A stretch of 44,611 nucleotides of DNA from a virus. Its lineage: Duplodnaviria > Heunggongvirae > Uroviricota > Caudoviricetes. The notes beneath the pieces were generated by a model. The model was not told where the DNA came from. It did no database searches and worked only from the letters and a program-made list of their open reading frames with translations. Location: positions 1-44,611 of IMG/VR virus record IMGVR_UViG_2703718850_000006; one strand, written 5' to 3'. Shown here piece after piece: positions 26,285-26,942 of the stretch (position 1 is its first letter; each line of letters starts with the position of its first letter). Made by a program: the position numbers and the translations under genes.

Positions 26285-26575
26285 TCAGCGCCTTCGTAAT
26301 ACAAGGATTTTTGATACGTTCCCGCGTGCTCGTATCACCAGCACGCAGAACACCAGGTTAATCAGGACGACCAGCCAGTTACCGGGTGGAAAGCGACCAC
26401 ACAGATAACAAAGCGGCGCAAAGGCATAAAGCAGCATCAGCAGCCAGGCCAGCCACGACATCAGCGGTTTATGTCTCGACTCACCACGACGATAAAAAAA
26501 GAGCGTCAGCACGATAACCGTGCTTAACACCACATTCAGTAATCCGGGAAGGTTACTTAACATTACCGCCTCCAC
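26285..26575 (-). CDS. putative membrane protein in lysis cassette (holin/antiholin candidate)
   Basis: 96-aa ORF with about three hydrophobic segments filling the gap between holin-like gene and endolysin. Confidence 0.4.
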   Translation of the reverse strand: MEAVMLSNLPGLLNVVLSTVIVLTLFFYRRGESRHKPLMSWLAWLLMLLYAFAPLCYLCGRFPPGNWLVVLINLVFCVLVIRARGNVSKILVLRRR

Positions 26576-26942
26576 CCCGCAGACGGGAGAACAGCCCGGA
26601 TACCAGCGATGCGATATCCTGCTGGTGGATGAATGAGAGAATCTTCACCGACACCACCGATACCAGTACCGCGCAAAGCGCGTCGAGAGATGTGCTGTGG
26701 AGATTCAGTTTTTCAACCAGGTAAGACGCCATCACATCCGCCCCCAGCACGCCAACAATGAACGACACCAGAAAATGCGCTGCCACACGCCAGACAGAAA
26801 TCTTCTGTGGTATCGTGGCCACAAACAGCGCCCCTGCGAATGCACCAAACACAATCCCGAAATCCGTTCCGGTAAACAGCCCGAATACCGTCGCCCCGCC
26901 GAGCGCCGCAGCCGTGCCGGAACCGGACAAGGGTTCAGACAT
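26553..26942 (-). CDS. putative holin
   Basis: 129-aa ORF with 3-4 hydrophobic helices, RBS AGGAG, directly upstream of endolysin. Confidence 0.55.
   Translation of the reverse strand: MSEPLSGSGTAAALGGATVFGLFTGTDFGIVFGAFAGALFVATIPQKISVWRVAAHFLVSFIVGVLGADVMASYLVEKLNLHSTSLDALCAVLVSVVSVKILSFIHQQDIASLVSGLFSRLRGGGGNVK

Follow-up and report, generated by a model that had tools for sequence, protein, structure and literature searches.

A small orphan lipoprotein as a predicted outer-membrane lysis factor in a phiP27-type phage lysis cassette

The stretch of DNA analysed here (the window, 44,611 nucleotides (nt) of a Caudoviricetes virus, positions 1 to 44,611 of IMG/VR virus record IMGVR_UViG_2703718850_000006) carries a lysis cassette with two holin-type membrane proteins (holin 1 and holin 2), a GH108-type endolysin and, further downstream on the same strand, a small prolipoprotein that we call lipo60. 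Comparison with related loci leads us to think it probable that these genes form a four-part lysis module, in which the outer-membrane step would be carried out by lipo60, an orphan small lipoprotein, and not by an Rz/Rz1 spanin pair. More tentatively, the lipo60 family may add to the spanins and the disruptin a third class of phage lysis factor acting on the outer membrane, namely an orphan lipopeptide of ~30 residues, anchored in the outer membrane, which has no phage inner-membrane partner and is recombinationally interchangeable with Rz/Rz1-type spanins; its signal peptide may contribute as in bacteriocin release proteins. The cassette itself is already known, and the role of its lipoprotein is the new point. 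The closest DNA-level matches are SerU-LTIIb, phiP27, phiSTEC1575-Stx2k and many E. coli prophages, all with the same gene order, and the region matches up to 10 places within one E. coli genome; by these matches, the cassette is of the known and widely distributed phiP27 type. In the relatives, PGAP names the products "putative holin", "phage holin family protein" and "glycoside hydrolase family 108 protein", and the rest "hypothetical". A preliminary description of the window, made from the sequence alone, had recognised a non-lambda cassette with two membrane proteins and a GH108-type endolysin in place of the lambda R transglycosylase, and had reported no detectable spanin. The first part of that description is confirmed by our analysis (both membrane proteins belong to holin families in Pfam), while the second needs to be qualified.

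An Rz/Rz1-like pair is indeed missing from the window. A tblastn search of its whole length gave no match to lambda Rz, lambda Rz1, Stx-phage Rz or the "i-spanin" of phiP27 (the lambda Rz and Rz1 query sequences were entered by hand; an Rz taken from the database, that of PhiR12_3, gave the same outcome). On the late strand between 23300 and 27100, with every start and every frame considered, we found no open reading frame (ORF) with an N-terminal transmembrane (TM) segment and a tail of at least 35 amino acids (aa), and likewise no i-spanin with an N-terminal TM segment and a periplasmic coiled coil, whether adjacent to, overlapping or embedding the o-spanin gene. The preliminary description had allowed for a spanin pair in an alternative frame near 25650..25740; such a pair was looked for and none was found, and the same all-start, all-frame scan gave no lipobox ORF embedded in or adjoining the endolysin, that region included. 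What had been overlooked is lipo60 (24670..24488), the one ORF with a lipobox that the late strand of the window contains, and a homolog of the protein listed as the o-spanin of phiP27. The absence of a spanin therefore holds for the Rz/Rz1 pair and for any i-spanin, but a spanin-slot lipoprotein is present downstream, and the truly missing element is any i-spanin partner. Like the o-spanin of a two-component system, lipo60 is a small lipoprotein near the lysis cassette and has periplasmic cysteines that could form disulfides (C48 and C57). Neither tblastn nor hhalign relates it to a known spanin family. Lipobox calls throughout were made with a regular-expression heuristic and TM calls with a hydropathy heuristic of our own, rather than with LipoP or TMHMM.

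lipo60 is a real gene, as seen from its lipobox, its Shine-Dalgarno sequence, its open copies and the purifying selection on it. The product reads MKRKHWTHRMPRTAAKWALVAILVPFLLSGC followed by VSLDRARQLLDAASQVCEIVNGVRQCMQN, with the lipobox LLSGC and the predicted lipidated position at Cys31. Its signal peptide combines a long, basic n-region with a hydrophobic h-region, and the only hydrophobic segment of the protein is residues 13–35. The ATG stands 4 nt after the stop of tm44, with a Shine-Dalgarno sequence upstream, and 1,067 nt 3' of the endolysin stop, with four small genes in between (Table 1). The frame is open in 151 of 154 copies, and the ratio of nonsynonymous to synonymous polymorphism (pN/pS) is 0.25, in the signal peptide and in the mature part alike, which points to purifying selection. 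Asp at +2 is absent from all members, so that the outer membrane is the predicted destination of the mature protein. This would be a peptide of 30 aa, amphipathic (hydrophobic moment muH18 of 0.55, comparable to magainin or melittin), with a conserved C-x8-C at its C-terminal end; at least 90% of aligned members share C48 and C57, and the divergent ones retain C-x8-10-C. The family is present in 352 of 5,426 complete E. coli genomes (~6%), at up to 7 copies per genome. A profile search among 1.84 billion proteins gave 24 clusters at 50% identity, and among GTDB genomes only three species representatives carry it. From this distribution, the family is apparently narrow and confined to Enterobacterales, and lipo60 therefore has no informative distant homolog. 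The signal peptide (residues 1–30, window 24581..24670; n-region KRKHWTHRxPRTAAKW) is no less conserved than the mature peptide, and the long basic n-region has a pN/pS of 0.30, which is odd for a segment meant for cleavage and discard.

One line of evidence for our reading comes from junctions at which homologous cassettes have either lipo60 or a spanin. At the GH108 stop, nucleotide-level homology between a Y. enterocolitica prophage (locus L165) and Yersinia phage vB_YpM_41 extends through the GH108 gene as far as an ATGA, identical in both, in which stop and start overlap; beyond the shared ATGA, the prophage continues with lipo60, whereas the phage continues with an overlapped i-/o-spanin pair, comprising a 92-aa i-spanin (N-terminal TM segment and a charged helical domain) and a 69-aa lipobox o-spanin. 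At the M15 stop, two loci (L153 and L139) have Rz with an embedded Rz1 in place of lipo60. After tm44, PhiR12_3 has Rz 7 nt behind its tm44 homolog, whereas the window has lipo60 4 nt behind tm44. No locus combines an intact spanin with an intact lipo60. Two lipo60 copies do adjoin an intact Rz/Rz1, and both are degraded, that of GER2 being riddled with stops and that of L139 truncated at the N-terminus. In the other direction, none of the 44 loci seeded on the vB_YpM_41 i-spanin carries lipo60, with the two-holin pair upstream in at least 32, and among 155 loci with an endolysin and lipo60 a genuine ORF of the i-spanin type is seen just once, as the Rz beside the truncated copy in L139. These comparisons point to lipo60 and spanins as positional alternatives that are mutually exclusive in homologous cassettes. 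The vB_YpM_41 spanin genes lie at 42512..42790 and 42705..42914 of OR545054.1 (L179 3034..3312 and 3227..3436); in that record, the i-spanin is labelled hypothetical only, and the o-spanin is without annotation. Related spanin pairs occur in the 44 IMG/VR loci mostly behind a Phage_holin_8 and Phage_holin_3_7 pair.

A second line of evidence is that lipo60 recurs as the fourth gene of the cassette. Two sets of 80 IMG/VR loci were retrieved, one with lipo60 as the seed and one with holin 1, of which 67 (those with enough upstream sequence) and 70, respectively, were informative; because these loci are mostly related E. coli prophages, they are not independent and their counts overstate the number of independent events, which has to be set against our reading. 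lipo60 stands 3' of the endolysin in 64 of the 70 holin-1-seeded loci (GH108 in 24, M15 in 40), in most cases no more than 20 nt from the gene before it. Both holins are present in all 67 lipo60-seeded loci, of which 34 have GH108, 33 have M15 and none has Rz. Independent lines within this material are four holin/endolysin combinations, several phage backbones and three junction types. The module is found in unrelated phage backbones, with differing packaging genes (Nu1-type, Terminase_4, Terminase_6N and Terminase_2) and in hosts beyond E. coli (Yersinia enterocolitica, Cronobacter and Salmonella), with different terminases and morphologies. It is also present in phage genomes deposited as complete, namely phiP27, phiSTEC1575-Stx2k and vB_Apl-pPE4. 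The window shows the phiP27-type order of Phage_holin_8 gene, Phage_holin_3_7 gene, endolysin and lipo60 on one strand, 5' of the terminase, save for the four inserted genes. Elsewhere, lipo60 begins at a median distance of 17 nt from M15, 4 nt from tm44 and 19 nt from tm60, and in Yersinia enterocolitica lipo60 overlaps GH108 by 4 nt. Distances to the preceding gene of the lysis region run from -4 to +21 nt, with no room for a promoter of its own, and by this spacing the translation of lipo60 is, in most relatives, coupled to that of the gene before it, which is usually the endolysin. Divergent members stand directly after the endolysin (gap 0–3 nt) in cassettes with a holin of the lambda S family, either with M15 (L172–L174) or, in Lelliottia (L177), with GH108, so that on gene content lipo60 is not dependent on the two-holin pair.

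These data bear on a rival explanation, in which there is no spanin function at all: the outer membrane would fail passively, under shear or osmotic stress, once the wall is lost, and lipo60 would be late cargo, serving for example in receptor masking on debris as does T5 Llp, in exclusion or in the tuning of lysis timing. We regard this as rather unlikely, although phages without spanins have precedent, as 91 of 677 phages of Gram-negative hosts (Kongari et al. 2018, PMC6139136), or ~15% (Holt et al., bioRxiv 10.1101/515445), were counted as such. The interval between endolysin and terminase is moreover a cargo hot spot, lipo60 is without the sequence hallmarks of Rz1, and it is missing from some cassettes: five of the 70 holin-1 cassettes have neither lipo60 nor a spanin, and the cassette can therefore persist without lipo60, at least in prophages. 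Several observations speak against this rival, however. lipo60 moves with the lysis genes and not with the tail genes, and its constancy across phages of different tails and terminases disfavours a receptor-specific role. The close coupling described above leaves it no promoter of its own, and it is never intact alongside a spanin while sitting at the exact spanin junctions of sister cassettes.

phiP27 is the relative for which spanins have been published. Its holin 1, holin 2 and lipoprotein are homologous to those of the window and in the same order (L28 holin, L29 holin and L30 endolysin), as is its methylase-tRNA-lysis-terminase context, and its early region carries an SPFH lipoprotein, L05, as does the window. 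It differs in having an M15 L-alanyl-D-glutamate peptidase where the window has GH108, in the Stx2e genes upstream, and in its myovirus backbone, as opposed to the lambda-like heads and tails of the window, which in turn has the four extra small genes between endolysin and lipoprotein. Kongari et al. 2018 (PMC6139136) list phiP27 as having a "separated" two-component spanin, the shortest known, with 62 periplasmic residues combined; their supplementary file 5 places the o-spanin at 20706..20861 and the i-spanin at 20348..20542. lipo60 of the window is 85% identical to the unannotated phiP27 lipoprotein at 20679..20861, i.e. to this o-spanin. The i-spanin call (L003 3787..3981) is another matter. 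It is a 64-aa ORF that starts with TTG, has no PHROG match, lies antisense to a 90-aa ORF matching phrog_36812, and falls in a region absent from the window and found in only two other loci of ~160. For these reasons the call is doubtful, and the i-spanin assigned to phiP27 is probably spurious. In the complete phiP27 genome, we found no other late-strand lipobox ORF and no i-spanin candidate, and our literature search gave no experimental study of these holin families, of the phiP27 lysis genes or of the lipoprotein.

The published pair nevertheless suggests a further rival, in which lipo60 would serve as the o-spanin in a two-component spanin of miniature size, with either tm44 or the phiP27 64-aa ORF as the i-spanin. 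In the window, tm44 ends 4 nt 5' of lipo60 and has an N-in/C-out-looking TM segment with a tail of ~13 aa, and the two conserved periplasmic cysteines of lipo60 are as usual in spanins. We consider this very unlikely, however. Besides the weakness of the phiP27 ORF, which is nearly absent elsewhere, tm44 is present in only 23 of the 67 lipo60-seeded loci, and its homolog in PhiR12_3 directly precedes a complete Rz. Minimal cassettes (M15 with lipo60 17 nt on, or GH108 overlapping lipo60) have no small TM gene, nor do those with a lambda-S-type holin, and a pair with 13 and 30 aa outside the membranes could not span the periplasm. Holin 2 was also considered as the disulfide partner of lipo60 and was rejected: the cysteine in its periplasmic loop is not shared by the versions from Salmonella, Cronobacter and Yersinia, and lipo60 is also found where a lambda-S-type holin replaces the two-holin pair.

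A last rival supplies the outer-membrane step in trans, from the spanins of a co-resident prophage, or takes it as unneeded in a decaying or defective prophage. E. coli genomes often hold several lambdoid prophages, and some relatives of the cassette are decayed, such as a hol2-M15 fusion (L139), a frameshifted lipo60 (L145) and the truncated SerU-LTIIb. This is nonetheless most improbable, since the prophage in the window looks complete, with intact lysis ORFs, the cassette is carried by the three complete phage genomes named above, and lipo60 is under purifying selection.

Our preferred reading, with lipo60 as the outer-membrane agent, would have lysis proceed as follows. Holin 1 and holin 2 would build up in the inner membrane, permeabilise it and release the endolysin, as their family membership and the analogy with canonical holin-endolysin systems suggest, and the soluble endolysin, of GH108 muramidase type with a PG_binding_3 domain, would then degrade the wall. 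lipo60, which in the window would have been displaced downstream by the four inserted genes, would be processed by signal peptidase II to the lipopeptide and sorted to the outer membrane. There, it may act as a single-component destabiliser that perturbs the membrane directly; alternatively, it could link up with the inner membrane when the two membranes are forced against each other by the loss of the wall. Single-component action is favoured, since lipo60 is too short for the periplasm and has no conserved inner-membrane partner. In this scheme, tm60 and tm44 would be optional accessory membrane proteins, and cys68 and p93 cargo.

Several further points weigh against a lysis role for lipo60. 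The function is predicted from comparative genomics, and the exclusivity of lipo60 and Rz/Rz1 rests on few recombinant examples. The five cassettes that lack both kinds of gene belong here as well. lipo60 is not rich in proline, unlike Rz1, its 30 mature residues are too short to span a normal periplasm, and its mature net charge is 0, which sets it apart from the cationic disruptin. A further point is the unusual conservation of the long n-region of its signal peptide. AlphaFold2 models the protein as one long helix at low confidence (predicted local distance difference test (pLDDT) score of 66). No meaningful match was found for lipo60 in Pfam (E up to 10), in a PDB sequence search, in NCBIfam or in PADLOC; the other small proteins of the region gave nothing meaningful in the same searches either.

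In its position and general make-up, lipo60 recalls several known systems without falling into any of them. On one hand, its gene directly follows the endolysin or tm44, the slot in which lambda Rz/Rz1 and further two-component spanins are encoded, and like two-component o-spanins it is a small lipoprotein, predicted to sit in the outer membrane, with periplasmic cysteines. On the other hand, it has no i-spanin, and its short mature part is predicted to be helical and contains no proline. An hhalign comparison with Rz1 gives a probability of 44% over residues 15–36, i.e. the signal peptide and lipobox only, and one with the vB_YpM_41 o-spanin gives 4%. Unimolecular spanins of the T1 gp11 type likewise fill the spanin slot with one gene product that has a lipoprotein signal at its N-terminus, yet they have a C-terminal TM segment and a periplasmic domain of ~100 aa, neither of which is seen in lipo60 by hydropathy. 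Disruption of the outer membrane without a spanin has a precedent in the gp28 disruptin of phiKT (Holt et al., bioRxiv 10.1101/515445), which is also a small amphipathic peptide from a phage that lacks spanins. However, gp28 is a cationic protein of 56 aa without a lipoprotein signal, whereas lipo60 is predicted to be secreted and lipid-anchored and is charge-neutral, with no homology detected between the two; as lipo60 is not cationic and bears a secretion signal, it does not qualify as a disruptin. Colicin lysis proteins and entericidin B resemble it in design, being lipobox precursors of ~45–60 aa that yield lipopeptides of ~30 aa, and the colicin lysis gene is, like lipo60, the last gene of a lethal, release-type operon. 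The lipoproteins for colicin lysis and bacteriocin release cause quasi-lysis and activate outer-membrane phospholipase A (PMC9517006). The resemblance is limited to size and architecture, as lipo60 and two divergent members gave no match to Lysis_col or any other lysis-relevant Pfam family at E values up to 10. Colicin lysis proteins are not known to have the C-x8-10-C motif. In the pCloDF13 release protein, the stable signal peptide is itself active, and a signal peptide of this kind would fit the conserved one of lipo60. By these analogies, the action of lipo60 would be nearer in principle to that of the colicin lysis lipoproteins or the phiKT disruptin than to that of Rz/Rz1.

The question matters beyond a single cassette. 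To our knowledge, the phiKT disruptin is the only characterised alternative in the ~13–15% of phages of Gram-negative hosts that are "spaninless", and lipo60 is a genetically tractable candidate for a second, given that natural recombinants carry either lipo60 or a spanin. It is present in prophages that encode Stx2e, Stx2k and LT-II toxins. If lipo60 acts alone, it would be a minimal outer-membrane-disrupting lipopeptide, the published spanin assignment of phiP27 would be corrected, and there would be a bearing on toxin release, since phage lysis frees Stx and LT-II toxins. If it is not a lysis factor, widespread toxin phages would be truly spaninless.

The genes upstream of lipo60 can be assigned with more confidence. 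The preliminary description had listed a multi-TM holin-like protein of 129 aa and an overlapping membrane protein of 96 aa, and the interval it delimited, 26285..26942, spans these two holin genes only. The first, holin 1, matches PF16931 Phage_holin_8 over profile positions 1–121 of 121 (E 3.7e-22, 79.2 bits against a cut-off of 26.4) and phrog_198, "holin" (E 1.5e-41), and has 3–4 hydrophobic segments by hydropathy. Pfam's own label for the family is "putative phage holin", and the holin role of holin 1 is likewise putative, resting on family, hydropathy and its position ahead of the endolysin. Holin 2 matches PF05449 Phage_holin_3_7 of holin superfamily III (E 9.4e-21, 74.1 bits against a cut-off of 25.4) and phrog_217 (E 4.3e-35); hydropathy places its TM segments at residues 4–25, 33–56 and 58–81, followed by a cationic C-terminal tail, RARGNVSKILVLRRR. 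The doubt raised earlier as to whether this second ORF is translated is answered by its conservation, its membership of a Pfam family and a good Shine-Dalgarno sequence, and only its length is to be revised. The start is most likely ATG 26563, which stands 5 nt after GGAGG, rather than GTG 26575, which falls within that Shine-Dalgarno sequence; with the ATG, the two holin genes overlap by 11 nt. PGAP starts in E. coli relatives agree with the ATG starts of holin 2 (279 nt) and of the endolysin. For the latter, ATG 26283, 1 nt past the stop of holin 2, is a more probable start than TTG 26304.

The endolysin, which includes the segment EGGYVNHPDDKGGPTKWGIT quoted in the preliminary description, matches PF05838 Glyco_hydro_108 (E 5.5e-26, 91.4 bits against a cut-off of 21.2), PF09374 PG_binding_3 (E 2.5e-26, 92.1 bits against 24.6) and phrog_315. 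With both domains above the Pfam gathering scores, it falls among the GH108/PG_binding_3 endolysins, the group of the N4 gp61-type N-acetylmuramidase. Its score against NCBIfam NF040573, the holin-associated N-acetylmuramidase equivalog, is 74.8 bits, below the cut-off of 240, and by this measure it is related to that equivalog and not a member of it. Hydropathy gave no TM, signal or signal-anchor-release (SAR) segment, and the endolysin is therefore expected to be a holin-dependent soluble enzyme.

Table 1. Features of the lysis region and of the surrounding prophage (positions in the window)
Feature	Position	Strand	Description
Integrase	43412..44611	+	
DnaB-type helicase			between integrase and Q antiterminator in the listed prophage order
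Q antiterminator	31282..30899		upstream of the lysis genes
DNA methylase	28756..27710	-	between Q and tRNA-Gly
tRNA-Gly	27491..27419		upstream of the lysis region
Three terminator-like hairpins	27134..27116, 27094..27077, 26983..26968	-	5' of holin 1, after tRNA-Gly
Holin 1	26553..26942	-	129 aa, Phage_holin_8 family
Holin 2	26285..26563	-	92 aa, three TM segments; listed form GTG 26575..26285, 96 aa
Endolysin	25738..26283	-	181 aa, soluble, GH108 and PG_binding_3
cys68	25442..25648	-	68-aa Cys-rich (6 Cys) soluble protein, phrog_4298
p93	25081..25362	-	93-aa soluble protein, phrog_33497
tm60	24827..25009	-	60-aa tail-anchored membrane protein, phrog_1115
tm44	24675..24809	-	44-aa single-TM protein, phrog_4906
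lipo60	24488..24670	-	60-aa prolipoprotein, phrog_7528 (E 8e-36)
Small terminase, Nu1-type	23879..23313		3' of the lysis genes

The four genes between the endolysin and lipo60 appear to be of two kinds. cys68 is followed directly by an intrinsic-terminator-like hairpin (25418..25397), its position varies among relatives, before or after lipo60, and it probably behaves as self-contained cargo and not as a lysis gene; p93 was found in only three of the 67 lipo60-seeded loci. The membrane protein tm60 is present in 35 of these loci, and its homolog sits between lysozyme R and Rz in PhiR12_3; by this distribution, it often accompanies the outer-membrane component yet is dispensable. Just 5' of lipo60 or Rz, small proteins with a tail anchor or a single TM segment (tm60, tm44 and analogues of 37–50 aa) are seen repeatedly, for example at 24675..25009 (minus strand) of the window, 3043..3371 of L001, 4747..4999 of L168 and 7465..7602 of L153, and a Salmonella small protein of 37 aa matches the same PHROGs as tm60. 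Such proteins may be lysis modulators, in spirit like Lcc6 of LambdaSo (bioRxiv 10.1101/2024.01.23.576932), but they are absent from the minimal cassettes. A disruptin-like cationic peptide was sought among cys68, p93, p73 and the N-terminus of tm60; none was convincing, as none is both strongly cationic and amphipathic.

Between endolysin and terminase, cargo is frequent: cys68 and p93 in the window and LT-IIb in SerU-LTIIb, where it follows the endolysin (L002 5219..6368), with toxin genes also nearby. A Cronobacter locus has a gene for a Pertussis_S1/Scabin-like ADP-ribosyltransferase just 5' of holin 1 (L167 2489..3217), and phiP27 has Stx2e ahead of holin 1 (L003 941..2176). At the corresponding sites, the window has tRNA-Gly and small ORFs only.

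The window as a whole is a complete-looking lambdoid prophage that runs from the integrase through the tail fibres, with lambda-like head and tail genes after the small terminase. The hairpins 5' of holin 1 would fit a late leader antiterminated by Q. An island of low GC content (~0.40), flanked by the Q antiterminator (31282..30899) and the DNA methylase, contains a porin gene on the strand opposite to the late genes (29612..30718, plus strand, 368 aa, Porin_1 E 8e-152), which looks like a phage-borne porin of the OmpC/NmpC/Lc type carried as cargo. Near the integrase, an early pair of genes encodes a 62-aa membrane protein (41418..41606, plus strand) and a 275-aa SPFH/Band_7 lipoprotein with the lipobox LVGC (41603..42430, plus strand). 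PADLOC gave no match for this pair; the SPFH lipoprotein and the small ORF upstream of it are homologous to the L05 "lipoprotein" of phiP27 and its 5' small ORF.

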